A stretch of 64,000 nucleotides of DNA from Candidatus Fermentimicrarchaeum limneticum (GCA_013426015.1 CP058998.1:1050758-1114757); one strand, 5' to 3'. Counted from the first letter of the stretch, positions 414-27,788 are shown. The notes: generated by a model from the sequence alone, not told the origin. Translations and numbers: made by a program.

Positions 414-415
414 AT

Positions 416-1249: not shown

Positions 1250-3442
1250 ATGAGAAAGGCGCAGGCTGCCATTGAGCTCACAATCATAGCATCCGTGATG
1301 CTGATTGTTCTCTTATTCATTTTCGAGTTTGGTGAGACGAAAATACTTGAAAGCGCATCCATCCTGCAGGTTTCAGAAGCCAGAAACACAGTTGACAGAC
1401 TTGCAAAAGCAGCCACTGAAGTGCACAATGAGGGAGTTGGAGCCAAGAGGAAGGTGTACATCACCATACCAGACAGGGTAAACCCAGACAGGGTGTTTGT
1501 TGACAACAGCACGATTACAATAGGCGTCTACGTTGGGAATGGCACGAGCGACATAAGCTCCAGGGTCAACCTCGCGGTTAAAAAAGGCGGTTATTTCCCA
1601 ACCTCCCCCGGCAGCTATTGGGTGTGGGTAGCAGGGAAGGAAGGGTATGTGCAGATAGGCAACGCCCTTGAGATCAATCCCCTGAACGCCTACTTCGAGC
1701 TGTTCCCCAACAACTCAACAGAGTCAAATATAACGTTCACAAATTACGGAAGCTCCCCCATAAACGTGAGCATGAACCTCAGCTGGACGGATTCCGAAAC
1801 TAACGCAAGCATAGACAACACAAGGAATCTCAGCTTCGCCCTCTTGCCAGGCACCTTGAATTCGCAGAGCGTAAGACTCAACGTAAGCGCAAACCTCAAC
1901 GCCTCCAAAGGTTTGCACAGCGGCTATGCCACTGTGACTACAAACATCTCCGAATCGGAGCTGATGCCCGTTCTCGTAAACGTGGTTTCCCCAACCTCTG
2001 CTTCCGGCGGAGTGGCTTACCTCACGATCAATACGTACAACAACAGCGCCCATACTTATTCAGACACGGTTTTCTCTCAGAGCGAGACGGTCTACTACAA
2101 GGTAAGATCATACAATTCGAGCGATGGCCTTGTGAACTCGACAGTCACAATCAGAGTCTACAACCCCTCCTCCGCTATCATGTCCGATGGCACCTACACC
2201 CCGAGCAGCACTGGCACCTACCAGAGCAGCTACCCGCTGAACATAAACACAAGGTCAGGCGTATGGAGCATATCCGCTTATGACGCGGGCGGTGCGAGCA
2301 CAAGAGCTTACTTCACGGTAAACCCAACTTCCAGCAGCACTGTTCTGCTGAGCGTTACCACCGCGACTCCGTTCTGGCCTAGCCAGAGGGCGATATGCAG
2401 GGATGGCAAGAACTACATCCATATAATATGGCTCTACAACAGCTCCAGCATCGCATATGCACGGTCCACTAATAATGGAGTAACATTCTCGATAAACACG
2501 AGTTTCTTCGGCAGCACTTCCACAACCTCATCAACAAAATACACTCCATCTGTATCCTGCGACGGAAACAACATAACCGCAGTTTATACCGATGCTGGTT
2601 CTAGTGATGTGATAGTCGGCATCTCGACTGATAACGGCAATTCATGGAACTGGGCCAACCCTATAACATCGAACATACGGATGTATAACGCAGTTGAGAG
2701 GAGAGGGCAGAGGATATACATACTGTATGTGGACGGAGAGTATAACGTAAGCTTCTTCAACTCAACCGATGGAGGGAGCACATGGGGTCCCCAGACAATA
2801 CTCTGGCAGGCAGGGGATTACGGGCAATTCGGCTACGATCATTATACCGATGTCTCCCTGGCAGTCAATGGAACAGGAACATCCTCCGACAGCCTTTATG
2901 CTTCATGCTACGAAATCGCTTCCGACGGCACTTCCCAGACGTTTGCATCCTCATTCAGGAACTCTTCAAACGCAGGTGTGACATGGGGTGCGAAGAGGAC
3001 CATGGCACCGTGGAATGACGTAGGCACCGGCGAACCAAGCATAACCACCAACGGCAGCGCGGTGTTCGTCGCAAGCAACAACTACAGCAGCACCGAACAA
3101 GTGGCTACCCTGAACAAAAGCCTGGATGGCGGCGCCACGTGGTCATGGGAGCAGGTATCCAACACGGTCAGCTCGTTCTACGAGACTGCAACGTTGAACG
3201 GCACCATGCCTTTCATTCTGTGGAGGAACGGCTCCGCATCAAATGGCGACATATTCTACAGGAATTACAACGGAACGGGATGGGACAGTATACTTGCCTA
3301 CACCAGCGACCACAACGGGAACGACCTTCCGAATGCCAAGTGGAACTATGCAGGAAACTGCATAGAGTTCGTTTACAGGAACGGGACTGCCTCCCCATAC
3401 AACATATCCTACGCAAGGCTCGGCAGTTGCACCCCGCCGTAA
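1250..3442 (+). CDS. Type IV pilin-like protein (class III signal peptide) with a large Asp-box/BNR-repeat extracellular domain
   Basis: The N-terminus MRKA|QAAIELTIIASVMLIVLLF fits the archaeal prepilin pattern (K/R-G/A then Q, E at +5, hydrophobic helix). Several S-x-D-x-G-x-T-W Asp-box motifs are present (STDNGNSWNW, STDGGSTWGP, SLDGGATWSW, SNAGVTWGA). The sequence is rich in N-x-S/T sequons. Confidence 0.65.
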   Translation: MRKAQAAIELTIIASVMLIVLLFIFEFGETKILESASILQVSEARNTVDRLAKAATEVHNEGVGAKRKVYITIPDRVNPDRVFVDNSTITIGVYVGNGTSDISSRVNLAVKKGGYFPTSPGSYWVWVAGKEGYVQIGNALEINPLNAYFELFPNNSTESNITFTNYGSSPINVSMNLSWTDSETNASIDNTRNLSFALLPGTLNSQSVRLNVSANLNASKGLHSGYATVTTNISESELMPVLVNVVSPTSASGGVAYLTINTYNNSAHTYSDTVFSQSETVYYKVRSYNSSDGLVNSTVTIRVYNPSSAIMSDGTYTPSSTGTYQSSYPLNINTRSGVWSISAYDAGGASTRAYFTVNPTSSSTVLLSVTTATPFWPSQRAICRDGKNYIHIIWLYNSSSIAYARSTNNGVTFSINTSFFGSTSTTSSTKYTPSVSCDGNNITAVYTDAGSSDVIVGISTDNGNSWNWANPITSNIRMYNAVERRGQRIYILYVDGEYNVSFFNSTDGGSTWGPQTILWQAGDYGQFGYDHYTDVSLAVNGTGTSSDSLYASCYEIASDGTSQTFASSFRNSSNAGVTWGAKRTMAPWNDVGTGEPSITTNGSAVFVASNNYSSTEQVATLNKSLDGGATWSWEQVSNTVSSFYETATLNGTMPFILWRNGSASNGDIFYRNYNGTGWDSILAYTSDHNGNDLPNAKWNYAGNCIEFVYRNGTASPYNISYARLGSCTPP

Positions 3443-3489
3443 CCTCGCAATACAAAACTAATTTAAATACAGAATTGCATTTCTAACCC

Positions 3490-4554
3490 ATGCGCAGGAA
3501 AGGACAGGGGGCGACAGAACTCTTGGTGCTCCTAGCCATGATTGCAATTGTAGGCTTGGTAATCTACGCATCCAGCCAGACAACCCTCGCAGAATCTAGG
3601 AAAGCACTCCTGCTCTCGCAGGCAAGAGCCACAGTTAATGACTTGGCAGCCGCGAGTTCAGAGGTTTATTCAGAAGGTGTAGGCGCAAAGAGAAGGGTTT
3701 ACATTATCATACCTGAAGGTTCGGATTCAGCCAGGGTTTACGTGAACAATACAATCATAAATGTTGGGATAAGGATAGACTCAACCGTCACTGACATAAA
3801 CACCAAGACTACAATGCGGGTTGTCCAGGGAGCTGACTTCCCTACAACTTCAGGGAGCTACTGGGTGCCGGTAACTGCTAAGGAAGGATATGTGCTGATT
3901 GGCAGCTCATTTCTTGATATAAGCCCCACCTCAGTTTCAGTTGAGATGCTGCCTTCCAATTCGACCAGCACTGGGATAAGATTCACAAATCTGGGGCCAG
4001 CCTCCCTCAATGTCAGCTTATCAGTCCAGTGGACCCATAATGGGACAGTTGACATGTCTCTCAACACAACCAACTTTATTCTGGCTTCCTCAGGTGATGC
4101 GGTCACTAACTACGCGCTGGTCAGCTTCCAGACGAATGCCAATACCCCTCTCCAGCTCTACAGCGGGAAGATTGCCGTGAGCACCAACACCACGGAGTCT
4201 GCGGAGATACCTTTGAGCGTTGATGTTGTTGGAACACAGGTGCCCACTGGTGTCTCATATGTTGTTATTGAAACTTTCAAAAACAGCAGCTACGCAACCC
4301 AAACAACCAATTTTACCTTGCCGGTGAATGCTATCATAACTGGCTCGGACTGGACTCCGGGTGCCGTGAGCATTGATATAAAAGATCCCTCCAGCACATC
4401 CGTGAGCGGATACCCAACTCAAGTCACAGCTAACAGCAGTGGTGGGTTCTCCCACCTCTGGAATCCAGCAGGAGCCACCCCCGGGCAGTATACTGTAGTA
4501 GCCAATCAATCAACAACTAATTCAACAACCTTCAACATAACCGTTTGTTCATAG
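3490..4554 (+). CDS. Type IV pilin-like protein (class III signal peptide), N-terminal paralog of the 1250..3442 protein
   Basis: The N-terminus is MRRKG|QGATELLVLLAMIAIV. Its first ~120 aa align with the previous protein (ARATVNDLAAASSEVYSEGVGAKRRVYIIIPE versus ARNTVDRLAKAATEVHNEGVGAKRKVYITIPD). It is rich in N-glycosylation sequons. Confidence 0.65.
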   Translation: MRRKGQGATELLVLLAMIAIVGLVIYASSQTTLAESRKALLLSQARATVNDLAAASSEVYSEGVGAKRRVYIIIPEGSDSARVYVNNTIINVGIRIDSTVTDINTKTTMRVVQGADFPTTSGSYWVPVTAKEGYVLIGSSFLDISPTSVSVEMLPSNSTSTGIRFTNLGPASLNVSLSVQWTHNGTVDMSLNTTNFILASSGDAVTNYALVSFQTNANTPLQLYSGKIAVSTNTTESAEIPLSVDVVGTQVPTGVSYVVIETFKNSSYATQTTNFTLPVNAIITGSDWTPGAVSIDIKDPSSTSVSGYPTQVTANSSGGFSHLWNPAGATPGQYTVVANQSTTNSTTFNITVCS

Positions 4555-5655: not shown

Positions 5656-5720
5656 AATTGAAAAATCGCGCTGTGATACCATTTTATTCTTATACATGCA
5701 AATATCCATGGTGATGCAGA

Positions 5721-6134
5721 ATGACGGATTCGCCCAAGAATGTCCAGTACCTTAAAGATCGCGTCCTCTTCTCCATAAATCCAAAAATCTATCCATTGGA
5801 AGTAGTCCATTCTGCAGCCTACGCATTGATAGACAAGGCGTATGTAATGCTAGACGGCGATCCGAACGATGAAATAATCGCAGAATTGAAACCCAAGAAT
5901 AAAGGGGAAATAAGGGAAGTTGTTACAAAGTTTGCAGAAGAACTCCTGAATTATGCTGTGTACTACAACCAATCAAGAATGAACAAGGGAGTCCGGGAGA
6001 TGATAATTGGAAGAGTGTTCTCAACTAACATACAAGCTTCCGAAACTACCCAGGAAAAGGATGAGAAATGCGATGAGATCGCCGACCCTCTCGGGATTGC
6101 GAAACCATGGACCCCGCCAAAAAAGAAAAGGTGA
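5721..6134 (+). CDS. Small HxsD-like protein, His-Xaa-Ser system accessory candidate, paralog 1
   Basis: It is 137 aa and lies upstream of hxsB. It shares with the next ORF the segment ...LKPKN/S... and a C-terminal E-[LF]-[LF]-N-[YH]-[AV]-[VL] motif (EELLNYAVYY), which resembles the LLNDYxLRE signature I recall for the HxsD family. Confidence 0.4.
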   Translation: MTDSPKNVQYLKDRVLFSINPKIYPLEVVHSAAYALIDKAYVMLDGDPNDEIIAELKPKNKGEIREVVTKFAEELLNYAVYYNQSRMNKGVREMIIGRVFSTNIQASETTQEKDEKCDEIADPLGIAKPWTPPKKKR

Positions 6135-6141
6135 ATTTTGG

Positions 6142-6396
6142 ATGGAACGGCTAATCTTTGACAGGAAGAGACATGCGGTTATTCTGAATCTGAATACGAG
6201 GGTTTACAAGATGGATAAAATACTCAAAATTGCTCAGACTTTCTCGCAGGCATGCAACGTGGACGTATCTGGAGATGTTGATTGCACGGTGCAGGTGACG
6301 CTTAAACCAAAGTCGAGGAATATGAGAGCGGAGGAAATTGGATACGAGTTCTTCAATCACGTGCTCGCCGAGATGAAGATTTCTGAGGATATATAG
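6142..6396 (+). CDS. Small HxsD-like protein, paralog 2 (start trimmed to the internal Met to remove the overlap with the previous ORF)
   Basis: It is 84 aa from MERLIFDRK... and ends 8 nt before hxsB. It is paralogous to 5721..6134 (VDVSGDVDCTVQVTLKPKS versus VMLDGDPNDEIIAELKPKN; EFFNHVLAEM versus EELLNYAVYY). Confidence 0.4.
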   Translation: MERLIFDRKRHAVILNLNTRVYKMDKILKIAQTFSQACNVDVSGDVDCTVQVTLKPKSRNMRAEEIGYEFFNHVLAEMKISEDI

Positions 6397-6403
6397 TGAT
6401 AGG

Positions 6404-7837
6404 ATGGTCACGAGTCTCTTCGATTATCCCGAATCTCCTCAATACGCAGAGAACAGGTACATTCCAAAGAAACTTGCGGAGGGGGATTACCTGGTGACCA
6501 TTGATAACGGAGCATGGGCGTTGCTCTCTGAGGAAGAGCATGAACTGCTGAAAACCCATCGCGTTTCAGAGAATCCAGATCTATTCAAGAAATTGGAGAG
6601 TTTGGGGATAATCATAACGCAAAGCAACCAAGCGAAAGTGGTTGGCGATTACCAAGCAAGATTCTCCCACATATGCAACGGTACCTCTCTCCACATAGCC
6701 GCAATTACTTCTAGATGCAACCAGAGATGTCTCTACTGCTACGTCAACCCAAAACCAATCAGTTCAAAAGGATTCGATATGGACAAAGACACTGCCAAGA
6801 GAGTCGTCGAGTTCATGTTCCAAAGCCCATCGAAAGCAATAACAATAGAATTTCAGGGTGGGGAGCCCCTCCTTAACTTCCCGATCATTCAATACATAAT
6901 AGACTACTCAAAGAAGCTGAACAAAAAATACAAGAAGGATATTGTCTACACCCTTGTCACCAACCTGACGCTGATGCAGGAGGACATCCTGAAGTACTTG
7001 ATTAGAAATAGGGTCGGAATCTGCACCTCGCTGGATGGTCCGAAAGAGGTGCACGATAGGAACAGGAGGTTTCTGGGCGGGCATGGTACGCACGATGAGG
7101 TTGTCCACTGGATACAGGACATAAAAACCCAGTTCGCCTACAACGTTAATGCTCTCCCAGTTATAACGAAATTCTCCCTTCCCTACGCCAAGGAAATAGT
7201 TGATGAATACGTGAACCTTGGATTCAACCGTATAAGAATAAAGCATATGATATACTGCGGTCTCGCAAAAGAAAATTGGAACAAGATAGGCTACACACCC
7301 GAGCAGTACCTCAAATTCTGGAAGGGGGCTCTGGAATACTGTTTCAAGATAAATAAGAGTGGCAGGTTTTTTGCAGAGGGAACAAGCCTTCTTATAACCC
7401 GAAAGTTCCTGTCGAGGGACTATCAGGCATTCACCTGCCTGGGGTGGCCATGTGGTGCTGCCTTGACTCAAACCTCATACGACCCGCACGGGGATATACG
7501 CTCATGCGACGAATCGAGAAGCTTCGAGGAATTCAAGATTGGGAGCGTTAGGAAGGACAGCTACAGGAACGTCTACACCTCGCCAAGAGTGCTCAATATC
7601 GTTGCTCTTACTTCTGGCCTCAACTCGCTATGCGATGCATGCGTGTGGCATCCCTACTGCAACAACTGCATCGTATCTTCCTTCGGCATGGAAGGGAACC
7701 CAGTCCCCAAACTTCCCATTGATTATGAGTGCAAAATCCGAGGGGGGCTTATCGAGCATGTTCTTAGAACCCTAGCATACTCAAAAGAAAAAAGAAAGAT
7801 TCTGATGGAATGGTGCTCAAGCAAGCAGGGAATATGA
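6404..7837 (+). CDS. hxsB: Radical SAM/SPASM-domain peptide maturase, HxsB-like
   Basis: It carries a CNQRCLYC (Cx3Cx2C) radical-SAM cluster motif and a GGEPLL SAM-binding glycine motif. C-terminal SPASM-type auxiliary cluster cysteines are present (CLGWPCGAA...CDESR...CDACVWHPYCNNC). It is adjacent to the His-Xaa-Ser repeat ORF. Confidence 0.65.
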   Translation: MVTSLFDYPESPQYAENRYIPKKLAEGDYLVTIDNGAWALLSEEEHELLKTHRVSENPDLFKKLESLGIIITQSNQAKVVGDYQARFSHICNGTSLHIAAITSRCNQRCLYCYVNPKPISSKGFDMDKDTAKRVVEFMFQSPSKAITIEFQGGEPLLNFPIIQYIIDYSKKLNKKYKKDIVYTLVTNLTLMQEDILKYLIRNRVGICTSLDGPKEVHDRNRRFLGGHGTHDEVVHWIQDIKTQFAYNVNALPVITKFSLPYAKEIVDEYVNLGFNRIRIKHMIYCGLAKENWNKIGYTPEQYLKFWKGALEYCFKINKSGRFFAEGTSLLITRKFLSRDYQAFTCLGWPCGAALTQTSYDPHGDIRSCDESRSFEEFKIGSVRKDSYRNVYTSPRVLNIVALTSGLNSLCDACVWHPYCNNCIVSSFGMEGNPVPKLPIDYECKIRGGLIEHVLRTLAYSKEKRKILMEWCSSKQGI

Positions 7838-8241
7838 CCAGCCCCAGCACCAACCCAAAAATTTATATACTACTGTTCAGAAATATTCCCGTGGCAAAAA
7901 AGTTCAGCTTACCATCCCTAAGTAAGACTGTCACCTCATTTCTGCTTGAGGAGGAGGGTAAAATATCAAAGGAATCGCTTCTTAAGCTAGGTGCGGTTGT
8001 CGGCAGCATCTCTGCAATGAGCAAAATTGCAAGTGCAGCCCACAGCCAGAATGTTGCCCACTCCCAAGCTACATCTGTTAGTTACGCGGGATCAACAATA
8101 ACCGCAACCCACTCACACTACGACCCGGCACATTCATCGCACTCCTCCCACAGCTCCCATGCGTCACACACCTCCCATGCGTCACACACCTCGCATTCCG
8201 TCCATAGCTCTACTGGTGGTAGTTGCGTCTACATCGGGTGA
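7810..8241 (+). CDS. hxsA: His-Xaa-Ser repeat protein, HxsA-like putative precursor/substrate
   Basis: The C-terminal tail is HSHYDPAHSSHSSHSSHASHTSHASHTSHSVHSSTGGSCVYIG, with at least 7 consecutive H-x-S triplets. This part is encoded with an 18-nt perfect tandem repeat (ccatgcgtcacacacctc x2 at 8157..8192). The true start may be an internal Met (for example 7834). Confidence 0.55.
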   Translation: MVLKQAGNMTSPSTNPKIYILLFRNIPVAKKFSLPSLSKTVTSFLLEEEGKISKESLLKLGAVVGSISAMSKIASAAHSQNVAHSQATSVSYAGSTITATHSHYDPAHSSHSSHSSHASHTSHASHTSHSVHSSTGGSCVYIG

Positions 8242-8245
8242 TCAT

Positions 8246-8803
8246 TTGCTTCTGAAAAGAGTCAGAATTCCGCTAGTCAATATAAGGAAGAAGTATTTCG
8301 TTTACCTAATCCTGGTATTCTTCGTTTCACTAATACTGCATGAATTCGGGCATATCGCAGTTGTACTTGCCGGAGGTGGCAGAATAACCTCATTCACTCT
8401 GACACGCCTTACTTGGGAGGCTCAACCTTCCGGTGATCTGCCATATCTTCTAGGCGGACCGTTGGTTACGTTAATCATATGCTACTTTGCAGTATACAAA
8501 TTTTTTGATGATAGAAAAAACCCCGACCTATGGCTTGCAACAGTAGTCTGCAATCTCTCTCCACCCATTTCACTGATGCTCTACTTGCTTTCGCTCCCGC
8601 ATGACGAAGGTAAAATAATGAGTTTGGCGAATATCCCACCGATAATATTCTTACCAATTTATTTTCTTATCTTTTCGCTGCCAATACTCGTAGCATTTAA
8701 AGCCCCCAAACTCCCCATCAACAAAAAGATAACATTCTATCTTTACAATCTGGTCATCCTACTCGCAGAATTAAAATTTTTAAGCATACTCGGATTTTCT
8801 TAG
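8246..8803 (+). CDS. Membrane-embedded HExxH zinc-metallopeptidase-like protein; the start is uncertain
   Basis: A LILHEFGHIAVVLAGGG motif sits inside a predicted TM helix, with several further TM segments, in site-2-protease/M50-like style. The ORF track extends it upstream to 8159, overlapping hxsA out of frame; I chose the in-frame TTG at 8246, right after the hxsA stop. Confidence 0.4.
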   Translation: MLLKRVRIPLVNIRKKYFVYLILVFFVSLILHEFGHIAVVLAGGGRITSFTLTRLTWEAQPSGDLPYLLGGPLVTLIICYFAVYKFFDDRKNPDLWLATVVCNLSPPISLMLYLLSLPHDEGKIMSLANIPPIIFLPIYFLIFSLPILVAFKAPKLPINKKITFYLYNLVILLAELKFLSILGFS

Positions 8804-8839
8804 GATAAATTTTTAAGCTACGACGCCTAAACGTATAAT

Positions 8840-9421
8840 GTGCTCGAACGGTTAACTCAAAGAAGATATCTACTCCTAGCTCTAGTCTTATTCACATTCA
8901 TCGCTTATGTTGTTTACCGGGAGTACGATACATCACAAAGATGCGGCGGGAAGCCCTGCCCAGAAGAACTGACTGCAAAATTAATAAAGAAGTATTCCAA
9001 CTCCCCGAATTGCAGTAATGGACTGTGTCCATTTGACCTAGTGAGAGAGTGGGAGGATAACAAATGCCCAATTGAACTATCAAACTCGCTAGTCTATGAT
9101 GTCCATATAGCGAATAACCCAGATGGCTCACTTAAAGATTTCACCTGCGAATTCGGTCCGATGTACAAACTAGTTGATTCAACACCGACAGAAGCAACCA
9201 TAAAAGATTGCAGCCAAGAAACCGTGGAGTCATTAGATAACGCAATAAAAGGAAAAAACATGACGCCAGTAAAATACGCGAGAACAATATATGTTTTTCC
9301 ACCTAATTTTGTGGACTATCACTATACCGTGCTTGCATGCGACAAATATACCTCGGGTCTTTTTAACGGAAGATATCTCATGCTGACTTTCGTCAACTTT
9401 TCTGGGCTTCTATATGGCTGA
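8840..9421 (+). CDS. N-terminally membrane-anchored Cys-rich extracytoplasmic protein of unknown function
   Basis: It has a single N-terminal TM (YLLLALVLFTFIAYVVY). About 14 Cys fall in CxxKPC, NCSNGLCPF, NKCP, FTCEFGP, KDCSQE and LACDKY contexts. Confidence 0.45.
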   Translation: MLERLTQRRYLLLALVLFTFIAYVVYREYDTSQRCGGKPCPEELTAKLIKKYSNSPNCSNGLCPFDLVREWEDNKCPIELSNSLVYDVHIANNPDGSLKDFTCEFGPMYKLVDSTPTEATIKDCSQETVESLDNAIKGKNMTPVKYARTIYVFPPNFVDYHYTVLACDKYTSGLFNGRYLMLTFVNFSGLLYG

Positions 9422-9472
9422 TTGTGGTTCTCACTTCGCTTTTAGCGAAATACAGGCATCCAGAGGCGTATC

Positions 9473-11383
9473 ATGTTTTTTGACTTACTAGACGTAATCA
9501 AAAACGAATTCCCGCAGAGTACCCTCTCTATGCAGAGCCGGGATATCTTTCACATCGGAAGGATAAGAAACCTGAATGTATCCTACGCCCCTCTTTTTGG
9601 CAAAGTCTTCGTTTATGATGACGAATTCAGTAGAACCATGATGCATACCCCTGAAGATTTTGAGAGAAATGTCCTTCCCGACCTAGGTCGCTGTAATGTG
9701 CCCTCCCCCCCGGATGACAAGTTCGATACTTTCGGGATACTCCCGACTTCTGAATGCAATCTGAGATGCGTCTACTGCTATGCTAAAGGCGGTGAAACTA
9801 GAAAAAATTTGGATATTGGAACTTTAAAAAAAGCTGTGGAGTTCATGAACAATAATTCGAAAGAGCAGGTACTGGTATTCTTTCACGGTGGCGGGGAACC
9901 AACAACCAAATTCAAACTGCTAATTGAAATTAAGAGGTATGTAGACAAAAATTTGAAAGCTGAAAAGAGTTTCACACTGCAAACAAATGGTATTTTCTCG
10001 AATGAGGTGAGAAGCTGGGTATCAAAAAATATCGACCACGTCGCGCTCTCCTGCGATGGTCCTCCGCATATACAGGATTTCCAAAGACCTTTAAAAAACG
10101 GCGGGAGAAGCAGCCCTATTGTTGAGGAAAGCATCCGATATTTTGTTGAAAAATCAAAAAATATGACCATCGCAACAGTCATATCAAAATTTTCAAATGA
10201 ACGGCAAGAGGATATACTCGAATACTTGCACAAGCTCGGTGTAAAAAAAGTGAAATTCACTCCCCTTACTGAAAGAGGCAGATGTCTATGCGGTGCAACT
10301 GACTATTCCGCCAGACCCGACATGCTAAAATTTTTCACAAACAATCTTACAAGGAGCATCGAGTTGGCGGATATTTACGATATCAAGCTCCTATACCCCG
10401 GCTTAATTGATTCGTGCCGTGACGTCTCGTGCTTTGTAGCTGGGAGGTCGTTTATTTTGACACCAGACGGGTTTGTCAGCCCCTGTGTTTCCGTGCATTG
10501 CGGCGATTCAGATTTTAATGAGCTGCTCTTCGGCTATTTTGACAAGGAGAAGGGTGAAATAAAAATTGATAAGAAAAAATTGGATTTTCTGCGGAATAGA
10601 GTAGTGCAGAACATCCCAGCATGCAAGAATTGTTTTATGAAATGGAACTGCAGCGGCGGATGCGCAATCTCCGCCTGCATGATTTACGGAAAGGACATCT
10701 ACTCCCCACAAAGAGGACATTGCGACTGGATTAGAAAGCTAGGTGAAGGCGCCCTGCGCTATAAGGTCGAGAAATACCTTTTAAAGACAAAGCCTTTTCT
10801 GGAGGAAAGAAATGGCACAATAGAATACCGGGAGGTATTAGATGACTTTGAACCCAAAAAACCCCCAACCAAGAGAAAAGAAGATTTGGTACTACAGGTA
10901 GACGCAAACAAATCAAGTCTTGCTTTGACCTACGATAGAATTATAAAAACCAATCCACGGCTGAGTCTGATATCTTTCAGACTGCGTCCCAAAGATTTAA
11001 ATTTGGAAACAGGCAGAAGGATTGAAAAATTTTTGAGAACTCTGAAACTAAAACGCATCAATTTCATCGTGACAAGACCACTGCCGAGATGCCTATTCAA
11101 CCATGAGTACGCGAAGGCTGCCGAGGATTTTAGAATTCCGAAAAATTGTGAGGAATGCACCTGGCTTTTTGTGCTGAAAGACAGCAATTTCCACATCTGC
11201 AATACAGATATAAAAATACCTGAAGACAAAATAAGGAGCAGAAGGGAGGTATACGAATTTTTCAAAAAACAAAACAAGAGAATTTTTGATTCTCCATGCA
11301 GTGAATGCGTATACCGGATAAGAGGAAATTGCAATGGTTTGTGCCGAGGATACAGAAATAAAAATATTCATGCGGTGCGATAA
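9473..11383 (+). CDS. hxsC: Large radical SAM/SPASM-like maturase, HxsC-like
   Basis: It carries CNLRCVYCYA (Cx3Cx2C) and FFHGGGEPT. A SPASM-like segment CKNCFMKWNCSGGCA is followed by an extra Cys-rich C-terminal extension (CEECTWLF...CSECVYRIRGNCNGLCRGY). It is 636 aa. Its stop overlaps the start of the next radical-SAM gene (TAATG). Confidence 0.55.
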   Translation: MFFDLLDVIKNEFPQSTLSMQSRDIFHIGRIRNLNVSYAPLFGKVFVYDDEFSRTMMHTPEDFERNVLPDLGRCNVPSPPDDKFDTFGILPTSECNLRCVYCYAKGGETRKNLDIGTLKKAVEFMNNNSKEQVLVFFHGGGEPTTKFKLLIEIKRYVDKNLKAEKSFTLQTNGIFSNEVRSWVSKNIDHVALSCDGPPHIQDFQRPLKNGGRSSPIVEESIRYFVEKSKNMTIATVISKFSNERQEDILEYLHKLGVKKVKFTPLTERGRCLCGATDYSARPDMLKFFTNNLTRSIELADIYDIKLLYPGLIDSCRDVSCFVAGRSFILTPDGFVSPCVSVHCGDSDFNELLFGYFDKEKGEIKIDKKKLDFLRNRVVQNIPACKNCFMKWNCSGGCAISACMIYGKDIYSPQRGHCDWIRKLGEGALRYKVEKYLLKTKPFLEERNGTIEYREVLDDFEPKKPPTKRKEDLVLQVDANKSSLALTYDRIIKTNPRLSLISFRLRPKDLNLETGRRIEKFLRTLKLKRINFIVTRPLPRCLFNHEYAKAAEDFRIPKNCEECTWLFVLKDSNFHICNTDIKIPEDKIRSRREVYEFFKKQNKRIFDSPCSECVYRIRGNCNGLCRGYRNKNIHAVR

Positions 11384-12339
11384 TGGGGAGACGACTTGAT
11401 TTGAAGGTTGGTTTTTCCTGCAACAATAACTGTAGCTTCTGCGTTCAGGGCCGTAAAAAGAATCTGGGTGACAAAACTGCAGCGCAGATCAAAAAAGATC
11501 TGAAAGACACAATCGAAGAGGGCATAGAGGAGGTTGTATTTACCGGAGGCGAGCCAACAGTACGCAAGGATATACTCGAGCTTGTCTCATACGCCACTGA
11601 CTTGGGTTATAAAATAATTCAGATTCAAAGCAACGGCAGGATGTTTTTTTATAAGAAGTTCTGCGAGGACATCATAAGGGCAGGTGCGAATGAGTTCTCG
11701 CCAGCAATCCACGGCCACATACCGCAGCTGCACGATTACCTCACCCGCTCGCCAGGCAGCTTCGAGCAGACAGTGCAGGGGATAAGGAATCTCAAGGGGA
11801 TGAACCAGCACATAATAACAAACTCGGTTGTGACAAAACCCAACTATAGGCATCTCCCGGAGTTGGCAGAACTTCTTGTCCAACTTCAGGTCGACCAGTT
11901 CCAAATGGCGTTTGTGCATGCTGACGGCAACGCCTACCTTTATTTTGACCGGATAGTTCCAAGAAAATCACTCGCAGCCCCCTATATCAAGCGGGCTCTG
12001 CAGATAGGGATTGATGCAAAAATCCGAGTTATGGCAGAAGCAATCCCGTACTGTTTCATGAAGGGATATGAGCAATACGTGTCGGAAATTTACATTCCAT
12101 CCACAAAAATAATAGATTTTGAATTTACTGATCCGAATTTTGAATACACCCGAGCTTCGCAGGGCAAGTGCAAAGCACCAAAATGCAAGAGATGTAAATA
12201 TTACCTCATCTGCGAGGGACCTTGGAAAGAATATCCAGAAAGAAGAGGATGGGAAGAATTCGTGCCGATTCCAGGCAGAAAAATGAAGAGCAGAGACCAA
12301 CTATTCAAAACCCGCAGGAGTGATACTGATGTTTCCTAA
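11383..12339 (+). CDS. Radical SAM enzyme, paralog 1 of a five-member tandem family
   Basis: N-terminal VGFSCNNNCSFC (Cx3Cx2C), FTGGEPT and a C-terminal CKRCKYYLICEGPWKEY (CxxC-x5-C-x-G-x-W, twitch/SPASM-like). Its nucleotide sequence shares a 58-nt identical tract with paralog 4. Confidence 0.65.
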   Translation: MGRRLDLKVGFSCNNNCSFCVQGRKKNLGDKTAAQIKKDLKDTIEEGIEEVVFTGGEPTVRKDILELVSYATDLGYKIIQIQSNGRMFFYKKFCEDIIRAGANEFSPAIHGHIPQLHDYLTRSPGSFEQTVQGIRNLKGMNQHIITNSVVTKPNYRHLPELAELLVQLQVDQFQMAFVHADGNAYLYFDRIVPRKSLAAPYIKRALQIGIDAKIRVMAEAIPYCFMKGYEQYVSEIYIPSTKIIDFEFTDPNFEYTRASQGKCKAPKCKRCKYYLICEGPWKEYPERRGWEEFVPIPGRKMKSRDQLFKTRRSDTDVS

Positions 12340-13213
12340 CAAAGTTGATGTGCTGTGCGGTTACACCTGCAACAATAATTGCCTTTTCTGCTTCATCAAA
12401 GGTAGAAAGACCGCTGATGGGACCACTTCGCAGATAAAAAAAATCCTGAACAATCTAAGGGCAGAGGGGTTCAGCGAGGTTATTTTCAATGGAGGTGAAT
12501 CGACCATCCGGAGAGATTTCATAGAGCTAGTGGGGTACGCCAGCGAGCTCGGCTTCCCCAAAGTGAATGTAAGTTCAAATGGCAGGATGTTCTGCTACAA
12601 GGATTTCGCTAGGAAGGCTGCGGAGGCGGGTCTGACGAATGCCATAATATCAATGCACGGTTCAAATGCAAAAACCCACGATATGCTGACGAGAGTCCCC
12701 GGAAGTTTCAAACAGACAATGAAGGGAATGGATAATCTAATCGGAGTCGGGGTAAAAACAATGTCGAATACGACCATAGCAAAGCAGAACCATACTGAAC
12801 TGCCGCGGTTGGTAAAACTCTTATCAAACTTTGATTTGGTGTGGAGGGAATTTATTTTCGTGCATCCCGGAGGGGCTGCTTTGCAGAATTTTGAAAGTGT
12901 TGTGCCTACCCTAACAGAGATTGCGCCATCTCTGCGCAAAGCATTTGACCCAAAGCGAGGCTTTACGAATCTAGGCGTGGAATCTGTTCCGTACTGTTTC
13001 ATGAAGGGATGTGAAAAATTTGTCGTCACACAAAAGATGGAGGCCAGACTGGTGGGGATGGATTTCCAGATAGCCGACGTAAACAAGTCAAGGAGAGAGG
13101 AAGCAAAAATAAAATCGCCGGGGTGTTCCAGATGCAAGTACAACGACAAATGCGAAGGGGTCTGGAGAGCTTATGCAGAAAGATACGGTCTAGGAGAGCT
13201 TAGACCATGCTAA
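12320..13213 (+). CDS. Radical SAM enzyme, paralog 2
   Basis: CGYTCNNNCLFC, FNGGEST and C-terminal CSRCKYNDKCEGVWRAY. It overlaps the previous gene by 20 nt. Confidence 0.65.
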   Translation: MILMFPNKVDVLCGYTCNNNCLFCFIKGRKTADGTTSQIKKILNNLRAEGFSEVIFNGGESTIRRDFIELVGYASELGFPKVNVSSNGRMFCYKDFARKAAEAGLTNAIISMHGSNAKTHDMLTRVPGSFKQTMKGMDNLIGVGVKTMSNTTIAKQNHTELPRLVKLLSNFDLVWREFIFVHPGGAALQNFESVVPTLTEIAPSLRKAFDPKRGFTNLGVESVPYCFMKGCEKFVVTQKMEARLVGMDFQIADVNKSRREEAKIKSPGCSRCKYNDKCEGVWRAYAERYGLGELRPC

Positions 13214-13235
13214 CATGGTAAGATGACGTGGGATT

Positions 13236-14210
13236 ATGCCATCGAATCTAATACGACTGGGGAACAAATGTAATCAAAATTGCATATTCTGCACGGTAGC
13301 CCTAGATAACGAGAGGGAGTTGAGCAATGAAGAGGTGAAGAAAAAAATTGAGTTTTTGTCAGAGAAGGGAGCCGATATACTGACTTTTACGGGCGGGGAG
13401 CCAACAATACGTAAGGATCTGCCGGACTTGATAAGGTTCGCGAAAGGCAAATCCTTCAGGAGAATAGAGCTGCAGACAAACGGAGTTCTAATGTCTGACA
13501 AGAAATTAGCTTGTGAGATAGCCCGCGCAGGTGTTGATGAAGTGCTTGTATCGCTGCACTCCCATAGAAAAAGGATATCGGAAAGGCTCACGAACGTACC
13601 TGGCACGTTCGACAAAACCTTAAAAGGGATAGAAAATCTCTTGGAGCTTGACAAGAGAGTCTGTATCAGCCATGTGATAAACTCGCTCAATTATTCTGAT
13701 TTAACTAATTTTGTGAAGTTTGTCAAGAACAGATTCCCCTCACTATCCTCGTTCTACTTTGGATTTGTGAGGCCAAACGGCAACGCAAATTTCAACAGAT
13801 GGATTGTGCCAAAAATTTCGGACATAGACTTCCGCATATACGGCGTTTTCAGTTACTGCAGGGAACATAAGATACCTTTCTCTGTGGAGGGTATACCGCT
13901 TTGTTACATGCAAGGATACGAGACGCATTCTTCAGAAGTTCACAGGATACTCTCCGAACCAGTTTTCTATATGGGAAGTGGTGATACCCAATACGACGTC
14001 CATAAATTCGTAATAAAGAACTTCAGAGCGAAGGGAGAGCAGTGCGAGTTCTGCTTTGTAAAGGATATCTGCCCCGGTTTATGGAAGGAATACGCGGATA
14101 TATACGGGACAGAAGAGCTGTTCCCAGTTTTCATATCGAAAGAAGGCATAACAAAAGATGTCAAAGAAAGGTGGGTTAAATGGAAAAAGAGGCAGTCACA
14201 AAAGAGTTAA
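13236..14210 (+). CDS. Radical SAM enzyme, paralog 3
   Basis: LGNKCNQNCIFC, FTGGEPT and C-terminal CEFCFVKDICPGLWKEY. It shares a 33-nt identical tract (tttacgggcggggagccaacaatacgtaaggat) with paralog 4. Confidence 0.65.
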   Translation: MPSNLIRLGNKCNQNCIFCTVALDNERELSNEEVKKKIEFLSEKGADILTFTGGEPTIRKDLPDLIRFAKGKSFRRIELQTNGVLMSDKKLACEIARAGVDEVLVSLHSHRKRISERLTNVPGTFDKTLKGIENLLELDKRVCISHVINSLNYSDLTNFVKFVKNRFPSLSSFYFGFVRPNGNANFNRWIVPKISDIDFRIYGVFSYCREHKIPFSVEGIPLCYMQGYETHSSEVHRILSEPVFYMGSGDTQYDVHKFVIKNFRAKGEQCEFCFVKDICPGLWKEYADIYGTEELFPVFISKEGITKDVKERWVKWKKRQSQKS

Positions 14211-15172
14211 ACCTATTCCTAGGTTATACTTGCAATAATAATTGCTGGTTTTGTTCAGAAATGGCGAATAGGGAAAAACCGGGCAAGAGCACAGAAGACG
14301 TAAAAAGAGAGCTAGCTAACGCAAGAAAAAACAGGGTTCAGAGAATTACGTTTACGGGCGGGGAGCCAACAATACGTAAGGATATAGTTGAGATCGTTTC
14401 ATATGCGCATGAACTAGGCTTTGAGGAGATATTCATAATAACGAATGGCAGAATGCTTTTTTACAAGGAATTAGCAAGAAAACTATCAGATGCAGGCCTC
14501 ACCCACATACTTTTCTCTCTGCATGCGCCAGAAGCTAGAATACACGATTACCTCACCCGCTCGCCAGGCAGCTTCGAGCAGACAGTGCAGGGGATAAGGA
14601 ACGCCGTCGGGGTAGGGAACGCCGTCGGGGTAGGGAACATAATCGTGGAGAATAACACGGTCATAACGCGAAAGAACTACAAGTCTCTTCCGAAACTTGC
14701 AGAGCTGCTTATCAAGCTGGGCGTTGACTTCTACGAGTTTATCCTAGTGAACCCCATCACGATAAATTCCTATTTCAGAGGAAGATTTGAGGAGTTTGTC
14801 CCTAGAATCTCCGAGATTCACAAATACGTTCACAGAGCTCTCGACATAGGAAAGGAAAAGAATATCTGGTGCACAGCGGAGGGAATTCCGTTCTGTTACA
14901 TGCAAGGATATGAGAAAAACGCCACGGAATTGTATATGGCTCCTCAGAGGAGCATCCTCGGCCCTGGCGGCCGTTACGTTGCTGACGTAAACAAGTCAAG
15001 GAGAGAGTGCGGCAAGATAAAAGCAGAAACCTGCTCCCGGTGCAGATACTACCTGCTATGCGAGGGGATATGGGGGCACTACGCGGAGCATTACGGGATG
15101 GCGGAGTTCAAACCAGTTGCCGGAAGATATCTGAGAAGTTCAGATATAGCGCGAGGCGGACGGCATGCCTGA
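14180..15172 (+). CDS. Radical SAM enzyme, paralog 4
   Basis: LGYTCNNNCWFC, FTGGEPT and C-terminal CSRCRYYLLCEGIWGHY. It contains an in-frame 18-nt tandem duplication (NAVGVGNAVGVGN). It overlaps the previous gene by 31 nt. Confidence 0.65.
   Translation: MEKEAVTKELNLFLGYTCNNNCWFCSEMANREKPGKSTEDVKRELANARKNRVQRITFTGGEPTIRKDIVEIVSYAHELGFEEIFIITNGRMLFYKELARKLSDAGLTHILFSLHAPEARIHDYLTRSPGSFEQTVQGIRNAVGVGNAVGVGNIIVENNTVITRKNYKSLPKLAELLIKLGVDFYEFILVNPITINSYFRGRFEEFVPRISEIHKYVHRALDIGKEKNIWCTAEGIPFCYMQGYEKNATELYMAPQRSILGPGGRYVADVNKSRRECGKIKAETCSRCRYYLLCEGIWGHYAEHYGMAEFKPVAGRYLRSSDIARGGRHA
14600..14635 (+). repeat. In-frame 18-nt perfect tandem duplication inside radical-SAM paralog 4
   Basis: aacgccgtcggggtaggg is repeated twice, encoding NAVGVG-NAVGVG. 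Confidence 0.8.
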
Positions 15173-16289
15173 CGTCTCCATAGTGAAATGTCCTGATTAC
15201 TCAAAAGTGAAAGTAGCAGTAAAAAGATCATTGGACCTTTTGGGCGGAGCTAGAAAGTTTTTCAAAAAGGATGAGATGATACTGCTTAAACCCAATATAT
15301 CCGACCCTCTCCCTCCCGACAAGGCGAGCAATACCCATCCACTCCTTGTAAGGGCGGTGATTGAGGTTGCGCAGAGGGCAGGAGCCAAGGTTTGGGTAGG
15401 GGAGTGCTCTGCAGGGGGGTCCCCCGGGATAACGAAAAAATGCCTGGAGATATCGGGTATCGGAGATGTGTTGAGGGAAACAGGGGTTGAATTCAAGAAT
15501 TTCCAGGAAGAGGTCTTCGTCCCTCGCGACATACCCGGATTTAAAGTTTTGGAAAAAACGGATTTTGCCGGCTCCTTTTTCCAAGCGGACTCCATTGTGA
15601 ATTTGCCAAAGCTCAAAACGCACGGACTCACCTTCATGACTGGAGCGGTAAAAAACTGCTTCGGGTTCATAAACCCGCAGGAGAGGCAGTACCTGCACAG
15701 AAATTTCCCAGAAAGGGAGCGTTTCAGCCAAGGGCTGGTTGACGTCTACTCATTCATAAAACCAAGATTGACAATAATGGACGCCGTTGTCGGTATGGAG
15801 GGGGAGCAGGGTCCCTCGTTCGGTGACCCAAGGAGAATAGGGGCCGTCATAGCTGGCGGCGACGGAGTTGCAGTAGATGCAGTCGCAGCCGAGATAATAG
15901 GCTACAACCCGCTTGCGATACCTATGATAAGAAGCGCGGATGAACGTGGTGTTGGGAGTATCAGAGGGATACGCGTGGTTGGGAGCAGTATTGATGCGGT
16001 GAAAGTGAGAGATTTCAAAAAACACCCACTCTTCAGCAACAAATACCGGAAAATGCAGGGATTTGGAAGCTCGTTTGTCATGATGCCGGAGGTTGACACA
16101 AGCAAATGCACCAGATGCAGGACCTGTGCGGATAACTGCCCCGTAGGTGCTATATTGATGGATCCCTATCCGGTAATAAACAGAAAGAAGTGCATAATGT
16201 GTTACTGCTGTCATGAGCTATGCCCGTCCGGTGCGTGCAGGCTTGAGGTAAAATGGTTCGGAAAAAAAGATAAAAGAGGAGTGGAATGA
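15165..16289 (+). CDS. DUF362-domain protein with a C-terminal 2x[4Fe-4S] ferredoxin domain
   Basis: The C-terminus carries CTRCRTCADNCP and CIMCYCCHELCP (two CxxCxxCxxxCP motifs). The N-terminal ~300 aa show the DUF362-type fold signature (ILLKPN..., GECSAGGSPGIT). It overlaps the flanking radical-SAM genes by 8 and 4 nt. Confidence 0.55.
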   Translation: MPDVSIVKCPDYSKVKVAVKRSLDLLGGARKFFKKDEMILLKPNISDPLPPDKASNTHPLLVRAVIEVAQRAGAKVWVGECSAGGSPGITKKCLEISGIGDVLRETGVEFKNFQEEVFVPRDIPGFKVLEKTDFAGSFFQADSIVNLPKLKTHGLTFMTGAVKNCFGFINPQERQYLHRNFPERERFSQGLVDVYSFIKPRLTIMDAVVGMEGEQGPSFGDPRRIGAVIAGGDGVAVDAVAAEIIGYNPLAIPMIRSADERGVGSIRGIRVVGSSIDAVKVRDFKKHPLFSNKYRKMQGFGSSFVMMPEVDTSKCTRCRTCADNCPVGAILMDPYPVINRKKCIMCYCCHELCPSGACRLEVKWFGKKDKRGVE

Positions 16290-17182
16290 TGGTTAGCGAC
16301 ATAGCAGTCGGAGTAACATGCAATAACTGTTGCATAATGTGTACAAACATAATGCCCCCCCCAACAAGGTGGGACGCGAGCACTGAGGACATTGAAAGGA
16401 TGGTGCGCAGCTTTGATAAGAAAGAGCGCAAGATAGTGCTGACAGGCGGCGAACCCTCAATAAGAAGTGACTTCCTGCGCATACTCCGGTTCATAAAAAA
16501 GGAGAGGCCTGATTCAAGAACAATGGTTCTTACGAATGGAAGGATATTCTGTTATCCCGAATTCACCAAGAAATTCATCTCCACTGGTTGTGACTGGGTT
16601 GCAATCCCCCTGCACGCTCATAAAGCTGAGTTGCACGACATGATAACGAGGGCTCCTGGCAGCTTCGAGCAGACAGTGCAGGGGATAAGGAACCTGCTTG
16701 ATTACCAGGACGAAGTCGACCTAGACGTGAGAGTTGTAATCCACAGGTTGAACTACAAGCATTTGCCAGCCCTCGCCAAGTTCATCTCCAACGAATTCAA
16801 CGGCCTCCACCAAGTCGTGCTGTTCCCCATAGACATAATTGGGAATGCGAATATAAACAGGAAAGAGCTCCTGGTAAAAATAACTGAAGTCAAACCTTAT
16901 CTTGAAAGAGCACTCAACACGCTAGAAAAAAATGATTTTGATATCAGCCTATTCCACATCCCGTTCTGTGTTTTAGACAGAAAATACTGGAAGAATGTAG
17001 CCGGCAGGACGGTTGAGGATAGGAGGATAACCTTCGAACCATGCGGCGAGTGCATCATGCGGGAAAAATGCCCGGGAATCTGGAGGACGTATGCATTCAG
17101 AGTCGGCACTGCCGAGTTCAAACCCATCCGCCCAGCACCAAAAACAATATATACGAAGTCACCAAATCTAAATGTTAGATGA
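16286..17182 (+). CDS. Radical SAM enzyme, paralog 5
   Basis: VGVTCNNCCIMC (Cx3Cx2C), LTGGEPS and C-terminal CGECIMREKCPGIWRTY. It shares a 35-nt tract (ggcagcttcgagcagacagtgcaggggataaggaa, PGSFEQTVQGIRN) with paralogs 1 and 4. Confidence 0.65.
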   Translation: MMVSDIAVGVTCNNCCIMCTNIMPPPTRWDASTEDIERMVRSFDKKERKIVLTGGEPSIRSDFLRILRFIKKERPDSRTMVLTNGRIFCYPEFTKKFISTGCDWVAIPLHAHKAELHDMITRAPGSFEQTVQGIRNLLDYQDEVDLDVRVVIHRLNYKHLPALAKFISNEFNGLHQVVLFPIDIIGNANINRKELLVKITEVKPYLERALNTLEKNDFDISLFHIPFCVLDRKYWKNVAGRTVEDRRITFEPCGECIMREKCPGIWRTYAFRVGTAEFKPIRPAPKTIYTKSPNLNVR

Positions 17183-26618: not shown

Positions 26619-26635
26619 CTATCCTTACTGCCGAA

Positions 26636-26680
26636 GTTTATTACTGGAAAGTTACCCCCCTTCAGGAGGTTTATATACCC
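26636..26680 (-). repeat. Solo copy, in inverted orientation, of the tnpB 5'-flank element (ACTGGAAAGTTACCCCCC ... GTTTATATAC)
   Basis: Its reverse complement reads tataaacctcctgaaggggggtaactttccagtaataaac, matching the element 5' of both tnpB genes. It lies between the two T2SSF genes. Confidence 0.5.
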
Positions 26681-26842
26681 TGAGCTGGATATGCTTATAA
26701 GCTGTTGGAGCGGATGCAAATCCAGATTTCCAACAACCGAGTCCCAGTAAACGGACTCCTGCGTTCCGATGAAACTGGTTGCAACAATGCTGTGCATCTC
26801 AATCAACCTCTTGAAGGAATGCCCACTTCATAGGTGGGTAGT

Positions 26843-27700: not shown

Positions 27701-27788
27701 CTTGTTGCCTACCCCAGTAAAAGCTCTCCCAAAGCCTTTGGCAATCCTTTTCGGAATTATGAAGAAGAGAATCCTTATGCGAACACCC

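Follow-up and report, generated by a model that had tools for sequence, protein, structure and literature searches.

Haft and Basu, as cited in PMC9062424, gave the first, computational definition of the His-Xaa-Ser (Hxs, or HXS) system. In Escherichia coli, HXS blocks the entry of phage DNA (Li et al., Nat Commun 2026, PMC13128918). E. coli HxsA acts in the periplasm, and both its signal peptide and its peptidoglycan-binding domain are required. Its last HxS repeat is modified by +8 Da, and the protein undergoes a non-canonical N-terminal cleavage that requires HxsB, HxsC and HxsD; HxsC binds HxsD (PMC13128918). In the same study, the only experimental one of HXS, 99.7% of systems were found in Pseudomonadota and 99.6% had the gene order HxsD-HxsB-HxsC-HxsA (PMC13128918), the former because the search used the peptidoglycan-binding HxsA. 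Here we compare with these systems a block of genes, positions 4567-17182, in a 64,000-nt stretch (the window; CP058998.1:1050758-1114757) of the 1.18-Mb genome of Candidatus Fermentimicrarchaeum limneticum Sv326, a DPANN archaeon of the Micrarchaeota. Judged from its sequence, the block is an HxsA3-type variant of the HXS radical S-adenosylmethionine (radical-SAM) protein-maturation system.

A preliminary description of the window had recognized a His-Xaa-Ser system, of a kind held to be mainly bacterial and of unknown function. The identification stands, as HxsB and an HxsD-related protein score at or above curated model cutoffs and the precursor falls in the HxsA3 family. The other two statements do not: E. 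coli HXS is an anti-phage system (PMC13128918), and the nearest relatives of this HxsB come from DPANN archaea and then mostly from ultra-small bacteria of the Candidate Phyla Radiation (CPR). The most interesting feature of the block is a dedicated A24 protease that appears, from sequence comparison, to be common to DPANN archaea and CPR bacteria. An HxsA3-type variant with such a protease was not found described in the searchable literature. No paper found mentions archaeal or CPR Hxs systems or the HxsA3 and HxsC4 models, and radical-SAM genes go unmentioned in a 2026 survey of archaeal type IV filament loci. GenBank deposits the block proteins as "hypothetical protein", the DUF362 protein excepted, and UniProt gives one of them the automatic name HxsD.

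An A24 peptidase linked to HxsD and HxsB

The gene at 4567-5655 had been read as a prepilin peptidase. Its product belongs instead to a divergent A24 subfamily that is linked to Hxs genes in both directions. The window proteins were mapped onto all open reading frames (ORFs) of related loci, identified below by L numbers, and the placement of the peptidase was counted over 48 archaeal and 32 bacterial loci. Within 2.5 kb of HxsB, 37 of the 48 archaeal loci have an A24-like gene; in 30 of the 48 it is directly upstream on the same strand, in the order A24-HxsD-(HxsD')-HxsB-HxsA. In twelve of the 32 bacterial loci, 3-9.6 kb separate an A24 homolog from HxsB; the homolog mostly stands at the cluster's far end, downstream and on the same strand. 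In a thirteenth it directly adjoins HxsB. For the reverse test, metagenomes were scanned with an alignment of 14 archaeal A24 sequences, and only matches with at least 2.5 kb of flank on each side were counted. HxsD or HxsB stood beside the peptidase in 19 of the 22 loci so flanked, and an HxsC-like gene did so in a twentieth. Many short metagenome contigs also carry an A24 gene followed by HxsD. The linkage extends to clusters of CPR, Omnitrophota and Elusimicrobia and to IMG/VR contigs, where a third arrangement, D-D'-A24-C-B...A, is seen.

The catalytic residues D25 and D92 (AGDGK) are conserved in 50 and 51 of 53 relatives, respectively. The window protein scores 27.7 bits with the Pfam A24 model (cutoff 26.5), and scores across the subfamily are 17-28 bits versus 49 for a canonical paralog. 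A structure model predicts a FlaK fold, and an Arc_PepC-type C-terminal domain is found in relatives of the peptidase. A PDB sequence search with the peptidase gave no match, and no NCBIfam model matched it. These comparisons indicate that 4567-5655 encodes a conserved component of this Hxs variant, which would therefore place the true left border of the system at 4567.

A Woesearchaeota locus (L024:6221-9256) has two A24 genes. A canonical 301-aa A24 gene follows a pilin cluster and lies about 1 kb upstream of a 378-aa Hxs-type A24 gene that precedes HxsD. The two proteins are divergent in sequence, and the locus is a natural test case for substrate specialization of A24 enzymes.

In Sv326, the pilins neighboring the peptidase have [KR][GA]↓Q sites, and the candidate sites in HxsA are EEG↓K or KxG↓A (arrows mark the cut). 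No second A24 gene lies within the 64-kb window. As the sole signal peptidase III there, the Hxs-type A24 therefore probably also processes the neighboring pilins.

HxsB and the HxsD-type proteins

The assignment of 6404..7837 as HxsB is borne out by TIGR03978, whose cutoff is passed with residues 22-470 of 477 aligned (Table 1). In the alignment of relatives, neither the CX3CX2C motif (C105/C109/C112) nor the C-terminal cysteines vary, and the protein contains Radical_SAM (58 bits) and SPASM (19.7 bits) domains. Both small paralogs upstream had been taken for HxsD. The second, at 6142-6396, reaches the cutoff of the HxsD_rel model, whereas the first, at 5721-6134, scores just under that of HxsD. 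The second ORF most likely starts at 6142, not 6007. HxsD-type ORFs number 143 in 77 loci, and most loci have a second copy.

The HxsA precursor

The seven consecutive HxS triplets described at the C-terminal end of ORF 7810..8241 are present (HSS-HSS-HSS-HAS-HTS-HAS-HTS) and are followed by HSV and HSS. Given the N-termini of the family and the gene call in locus L082, the precursor probably starts at the in-frame GTG at 7891, which yields an N-terminus (MAKKFSLPSLSKTV...) that fits the family. With this start, the 28-nt overlap with HxsB is an artefact of choosing the longest ORF. Three TATA-like patterns were searched for on the plus strand of the first 26 kb of the window, and the box TTTATATA is one of just two sites that fit. 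If this box functions as its sequence implies, hxsA probably has its own promoter and a separate, near-leaderless transcript.

In the precursor, a conserved leader (LPSLSKTVTSFLLEEEGKISK) and a short hydrophobic stretch precede ASAA and an ATHSH box, after which come 7+1 HxS triplets and a tail with Cys. Only the HxsA3 and HxsA4 (NF038313) models matched it, both below cutoff, and the canonical HxsA model gave no match to the window precursor. All 36 of the precursor N-termini tested from DPANN and CPR loci matched NCBIfam HxsA3. In an alignment of the window precursor and 35 relatives, E21 and G23 do not vary, and conservation is at least 90% at P8, K12, F17, L18, I25, K27 and G34. The leader of the family reads [LF]PKIKKxIxxFLxxEEGKISK, with an invariant E-x-G, and is followed by a near-invariant Gly. 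Downstream come 12-15 hydrophobic residues, an AxA-like motif, an ATHxHH box and 1 to ~40 HxS triplets, and the proteins end in ...SY/W or a Cys tail.

The FLxxEEG motif of the leader resembles the FLxDExG motif of Flp prepilins. A Flp-like or class III pilin was considered as an identity for HxsA and remains a lead only, since in Pfam the 36 N-termini matched no pilin, Flp or class III signal model even at E ≤10. No Pfam family matched the leader at the gathering threshold in this set.

Within the window, the HxS-coding stretch at 8130-8215 contains a nearly exact direct repeat of ~24 nt (ctcccatgcgtcacacacctc), and the number of H.S triplets differs between close relatives, with 8 in the window versus 6 in L002; together these suggest slippage-type length variation. 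Across lineages, many CPR precursors (L046-L081, e.g. L069:12184-12459) have (GSH)n repeats, in which every third residue is Gly, as in triplets of the collagen type, and the DPANN repeats are mostly HSS, HAS or HTS, without Gly. A Woesearchaeota HxsA3-type precursor (L037:6850-7422) ends in a Peptidase_S74 domain (46.8 bits), the self-cleaving chaperone domain of trimeric phage tail fibers and endosialidases. The S74 domain and the (GSH)n repeats hint at a fibrous product. In two CPR precursors (L053 and L059; 504 and 521 aa), the C-terminal domain is large and matches nothing in Pfam.

Radical-SAM enzymes and accessory proteins

The system had been described as enlarged by extra Fe-S enzymes, and the window indeed encodes a second SPASM enzyme, five HxsC-like paralogs and a DUF362-ferredoxin protein. 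The 636-aa product of 9473..11383 had been placed as HxsC. It is rather a generic radical-SAM/SPASM enzyme, with a radical-SAM and a sub-threshold SPASM domain, that matches PapB best, followed by the SCIFF maturase (93 bits) and HxsB (69.5 bits). The HxsC-like genes are the ~300-aa paralogs. All five of these have CX3CX2C and a C-terminal CxxCx5C, and they score 112-264 bits against one another. The last, 16286-17182, has HxsC as its top match, and HxsC of the canonical D-B-C-A loci in IMG/VR matches this paralog best; by these scores it is the nearest counterpart of canonical HxsC. The other four have HxsC4 as their top match, and CPR and DPANN loci contain orthologs of the first of them, 11383-12339, at 350-450 bits. 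Arrays within 10 kb reach six HxsC-like genes in loci seeded with HxsB and seven in loci seeded with the peptidase, and 23 of 24 bacterial loci of at least 12 kb have at least one. In the cluster of one Micrarchaeia relative (L086:19918-21434), there are four HxsC-like genes instead of five, and after them comes a B12-binding radical-SAM gene that the window does not have.

Orthologs of the 636-aa enzyme stand directly after HxsA in four loci (L007, L027, L046 and L050). A Cys is present in the last 16 residues of HxsA in 5/5 evaluable loci with this enzyme versus 16/58 without it (Fisher one-sided p = 0.003, on lineages that are not independent). This co-occurrence suggests that the enzyme acts on the Cys tail.

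The DUF362 protein with its ferredoxin domain, recognized earlier, is kept in L082, L086 and L093; outside Micrarchaeia it was found only in L030, after HxsA. It is a possible electron donor for the radical-SAM enzymes. For the product of 8246-8803, described as a membrane HExxH peptidase-like protein, the LHEFGH motif is present but the Peptidase_M50B match is weak and under the cutoff. Its L082 ortholog also gives a faint M50 match, consistent with a possible M50-like intramembrane metalloprotease. This protein and the 193-aa and 709-aa Cys-rich proteins are confined to Micrarchaeia. Iterative searches with the HExxH, 193-aa Cys-rich and DUF362 proteins found nothing outside Micrarchaeia except the DUF362 protein of L030; these are lineage-specific accessories and not core parts.

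Distribution of relatives

A protein search with HxsB returned 2035 proteins at E ≤1e-20, and all matches with a named organism were from DPANN archaea; several archaeal relatives are already named HxsB automatically by NCBI. With one genome scanned per species, at least 564 HxsB loci were recovered. The best 80 are from DPANN archaea, and beyond these, at ~35% identity, the loci are mostly from CPR/Patescibacteria, Omnitrophota and Elusimicrobia.

Hxs clusters also occur on contigs that IMG/VR classes as viral (L168-L184). L168-L172 have the arrangement HxsD-HxsD'-A24-like-HxsC-HxsB...HxsA, with an HxsA of 173-272 aa. The other twelve, through L184, have the canonical D-B-C-A gene set, with HxsA first in L173 and L174. 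HxsA has 237 aa in L180-L184, and PG_binding_1 was seen in the L180 copy, the sole copy tested. Upstream of the locus in one Micrarchaeia relative (L082:899-3376), the inositol-1-phosphate synthase gene contains an intein (Intein_splicing and LAGLIDADG), and the same gene is intein-free (360 aa) in L084 and L086.

Gene map of the window

Every gene of the preliminary description's ORF list was recovered on the plus strand by ORF listing and translation (Table 1). The flanks are likewise as described, with class III pilin-like genes and the A24 gene upstream, and Laminin_G_3 adhesins, two T2SSF genes and one T2SSE gene downstream. Overlaps of 4-31 nt had been reported throughout. True overlaps (1, 20, 31, 8, 4 and 4 nt) are limited to the stretch between 11383 and 17182; elsewhere gaps of 4-65 nt separate the genes, and several of these gaps contain TATA-like boxes. 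The start of the HExxH membrane protein was corrected to the TTG at 8246. Class III signal peptides were found with a heuristic scan, a crude predictor.

Table 1. Features of the Hxs block and its flanks. Positions are counted from the first nucleotide of the window; curated cutoffs are in brackets.
Feature	Position	Strand	Evidence and remarks
Two tandem KaiC-family ATPase genes, one with DUF7504	63-1210		Directly before pilin genes in all Micrarchaeia relatives
ORF upstream of the pilin-like 354-aa gene	1250..3442	+	Class III scan; weak MG2 domain; position kept in Micrarchaeia relatives
Pilin-like protein, 354 aa (MRRKG↓QGATELL)	3490..4554	+	TATA-like box at 3462
Hxs-associated A24 (GxGD) membrane aspartyl peptidase, 362 aa	4567..5655	+	D25 and D92 (WRAGDGKLF)
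HxsD-type small protein 1, 137 aa, motif ELLNYAVY	5721..6134	+	TIGR03976 HxsD 45.1 bits (50); Pfam PF27806; UniProt HxsD
HxsD-related small protein 2, 84 aa, motif EFFNHVLA	6142..6396	+	NF038315 HxsD_rel 41.4 bits (41)
HxsB radical-SAM/SPASM maturase, 477 aa	6404..7837	+	TIGR03978 HxsB 378.4 bits (370)
Consensus archaeal TATA box TTTATATA	7862..7869	+	21 nt upstream of the proposed hxsA start
HxsA3-type precursor, 116 aa from GTG 7891	7891..8241	+	NF038309 HxsA3 29-31 bits (65); family alignments
Membrane protein with HExxH (LHEFGH), 185 aa, TTG start	8246..8803	+	Peptidase_M50B 16.8 bits (26), E 0.0056
Membrane-anchored Cys-rich protein, 193 aa	8840..9421	+	No family match; homologs in Micrarchaeia loci only
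Second radical-SAM/SPASM enzyme, 636 aa, Cys-rich C-terminal extension	9473..11383	+	PapB 103 bits (340)
Four tandem HxsC4-like radical-SAM paralogs	11383-12339, 12320-13213, 13236-14210, 14180-15172	+	NF038332 HxsC4 125-185 bits (500)
DUF362 fused to a 2x[4Fe-4S] ferredoxin domain	15165..16289	+	PF04015 182.8 bits and Fer4 domains
HxsC-like radical-SAM enzyme, 298 aa	16286..17182	+	TIGR03977 HxsC 209.1 bits (267.9)
Secreted Cys-rich protein, 709 aa	17179..19308	+	Faint MG2 match, otherwise no family; 4-nt overlap with the last radical-SAM gene
Pilin-like and LamG adhesin genes, 217, 679, 150 and 1018 aa	19388..25613	+	Class III signal peptides; Laminin_G_3 104.8 and 183.6 bits
Type IV filament core: two T2SSF platform genes and a T2SSE ATPase gene	25614..29552	-	PF00482 58 and 52 bits; PF00437 119 bits
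GenBank entries of the peptidase, HxsD, HxsB and most other block proteins			QLJ53367-QLJ53381; locus tags Sv326_1192-1206

Orthologs of the 354-aa pilin lie directly 5' of the peptidase gene in L002, L082, L086 and L088. Of the two KaiC-family genes (63-1210), the second gives a weak ArlH/FlaH match (54 bits, cutoff 215), and the tandem pair may encode accessory ATPases of the filament locus. An IS605-family OrfB/TnpB gene on the minus strand (29603-30766; OrfB_IS605 101 bits, Cas12f1-like TNB 84 bits) directly adjoins the pilus ATPase gene.

A model for HxsA maturation and its alternatives

We favor the explanation that the block is an HxsA3-type HXS variant whose precursor is processed by the A24 protease and contributes to an envelope barrier against viral DNA entry, and consider this probable rather than assured. 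The hxsA gene (7891-8241) would be transcribed from its own TATA box to give a precursor with the basic/acidic leader LPxIKKxIxxFLxxEEGKISK. In the cytoplasm, HxsB and the two HxsD-type proteins would bind this leader. His and Ser of the repeats would then be modified by HxsB and the HxsC-like enzymes, and the Cys tail by the 636-aa SPASM enzyme, with electrons supplied by the DUF362-ferredoxin protein. The FlaK-fold A24 protease would cut off the leader at EEG↓K or KxG↓A, perhaps assisted by the lineage-specific HExxH membrane protein, and the modified peptide would be located at or outside the cell surface. There its most likely role, by analogy with E. coli, would be an envelope barrier to the entry of viral DNA.

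Several observations weigh against this model. Acidic residues precede the invariant Gly of the HxsA leader, unlike the [KR][GA]↓Q sites of the neighboring pilins. The hydrophobic segment and AxA motif could instead form a standard Sec signal for signal peptidase I to cut, and the A24 enzyme would then have no clear role. The peptidoglycan-binding domain required in E. coli is absent, as no Pfam domain was found in the window precursor. HxsA, HxsC and HxsD score under their curated cutoffs, and the gene order (A24, D, D', B, A, two accessory genes, the SPASM enzyme, C x4, DUF362, C) is not D-B-C-A. No HxsC-like gene was found within 10 kb in 15 of 34 (~44%) archaeal loci of at least 12 kb; the core may thus function in the absence of HxsC, or the HxsC gene may be located elsewhere in the genome. 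HxsA chemistry and cleavage are known for E. coli only, not for archaeal or CPR systems, and the anti-viral role is drawn purely by analogy. PADLOC v2 has no Hxs model and gave only generic viperin-like matches via the radical-SAM core, and is therefore uninformative either way on a defense role.

The alternative that survives best, although we think it unlikely, is that the enzymes serve the pilus, either by modifying pilins or Cys-rich surface proteins or by acting on an HxsA that is pilin-processed and built into the filament. Such a coupling had been proposed from the window, where the Hxs block lies between pilin genes and adhesin and ATPase genes. The order is kept in Micrarchaeia relatives: four contigs (74-83% HxsB identity) read KaiC-KaiC-pilin-pilin-A24-D-D'-B, and in the two of them that reach further, A is next, then the genes for the membrane protein and the Cys-rich protein, the gene for the SPASM enzyme, HxsC-like genes, and DUF362 ahead of a last HxsC-like gene. 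The shared order is, however, weak evidence because these contigs are close relatives. Linkage to pilus genes recurs elsewhere but is not general. Four small pilin genes lie directly 5' of the A24 gene in L116 and L160, L040 and L117 have genes for the pilus ATPase and platform, L024 has a pilin cluster nearby, and a Saccharibacteria locus (L069) has a bacterial pilin and weak (21-27 bit) pilus ATPase matches. Clear pilin genes within ~4 kb of the core were found in about 12 of 117 DPANN-type loci, and most Hxs loci have no recognizable pilin, ATPase or platform gene within 10 kb. By the same crude predictor, class-III-like ORFs are modestly enriched near the core (0.76 versus 0.44 per 10 kb farther away, ~1.75-fold; p = 0.03). 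The 4-nt overlap between the last radical-SAM gene and the gene for the 709-aa Cys-rich protein would also fit, but this protein and the other Cys-rich and HExxH proteins are restricted to Micrarchaeia. Likewise, the sole A24 of the 64 kb is of the Hxs type, whereas L024 has a separate canonical A24 by its pilins. The fiber-type Peptidase_S74 domain on one Woesearchaeota HxsA would suit a filament, yet the HxsA leader matches no pilin or Flp model and its hydrophobic segment is short.

Less probable again, and in our view doubtful, is that HxsA3-type precursors, with radical-SAM-modified His/Ser repeats, are new class III signal peptidase substrates, cut at EEG↓K by a dedicated FlaK-fold protease and displayed as a fiber or in association with pili on the surface of ultra-small DPANN and CPR symbionts for virus exclusion or host contact. 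If true, a link between radical-SAM protein modification and the secretion pathway of type IV filaments would span two domains of life.

Lower still we rank a secreted, diffusible modified peptide, a His-rich metal chelator or a toxin without a role in defense or pili, for which the A24 and HExxH proteins would be leader peptidases. The locus is laid out like those of natural products, with leader, core, several radical-SAM/SPASM maturases and proteases, and the top matches of the SPASM enzyme are thioether-forming peptide maturases. His-rich repeats are classic metal ligands, and their number ranges widely, from 1 to ~40. The clusters, however, have no conserved transporter, immunity or metal-uptake gene, and the large C-terminal fusions of some members ill suit a small diffusible product. 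The sole characterized family member is a cell-envelope defense protein (PMC13128918).

That the A24 gene is a housekeeping prepilin peptidase beside which an Hxs island was inserted by chance, as its position 12 nt after two pilin genes, its predicted FlaK fold and the Arc_PepC-type domain of its relatives might suggest, is very improbable and strongly disfavored by the two-way adjacency across many DPANN lineages, by its reach into CPR, Omnitrophota, Elusimicrobia and IMG/VR contigs, and by the divergence of the subfamily from a canonical A24 paralog in the same locus.

The family reaches well beyond Pseudomonadota: the searches found hundreds of HxsB loci outside that group, the nearest in DPANN archaea and the more distant mostly in CPR bacteria, hosts that combine tiny genomes with few known defense systems and a surface-dependent symbiosis. 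E. coli HxsA is cleaved by a non-canonical route; this variant encodes a candidate intramembrane protease, which makes the cleavage step directly testable. Arrayed HxsC-like enzymes, along with the SPASM enzyme associated with the Cys tail, point to a family of protein modifications with unsolved chemistry. For annotation, the genes are "hypothetical" in the source genome, and a "prepilin peptidase" label on the A24 gene would mislead surveys of pili.

Comparison with known systems

Among curated families, NCBIfam HxsA3 and HxsA4, HxsC4 and HxsD_rel are the best matches for the precursor, the four paralogs and the second small protein, respectively, with only HxsD_rel above its cutoff.

The peptidase is comparable to PibD, FlaK and EppA (MEROPS A24B; FlaK structure 3S0X), with which it shares GxGD, both catalytic Asp motifs, Arc_PepC in relatives and adjoining pilin genes. 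Unlike these enzymes, the Hxs-type A24 is tied to HxsD and HxsB across lineages and domains, and its presumed substrate is without the usual [KR][GA] context.

Ranthipeptide clusters of the PapB/SCIFF type likewise combine a leader-core precursor, SPASM maturases and a leader protease, the last putative here. The 636-aa enzyme scores far under the cutoffs of all these families (PapB in Table 1), and the main repeats here are of His and Ser, not Cys. To our knowledge, an intramembrane A24 enzyme is not among the leader peptidases of peptide natural-product clusters.

The HXS systems of E. coli and Klebsiella are organized as D-B-C-A, in contrast to A24-D-D'-B-A-...-C(x5) here. The archaeal variant has a 116-aa HxsA3-type peptide with a conserved leader in place of a protein that bears a peptidoglycan-binding domain; the variant adds the dedicated A24 enzyme, five HxsC-like copies, the second SPASM enzyme and the DUF362-ferredoxin protein. 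Its host is an archaeon without murein, and its function is putative. Common to both are HxsB, HxsD-type proteins with an LLN.Y-like motif, HxsC-family enzymes with a second Cys cluster and a substrate of tandem His-x-Ser triplets, from which an N-terminal part is removed, as demonstrated in E. coli and predicted here.

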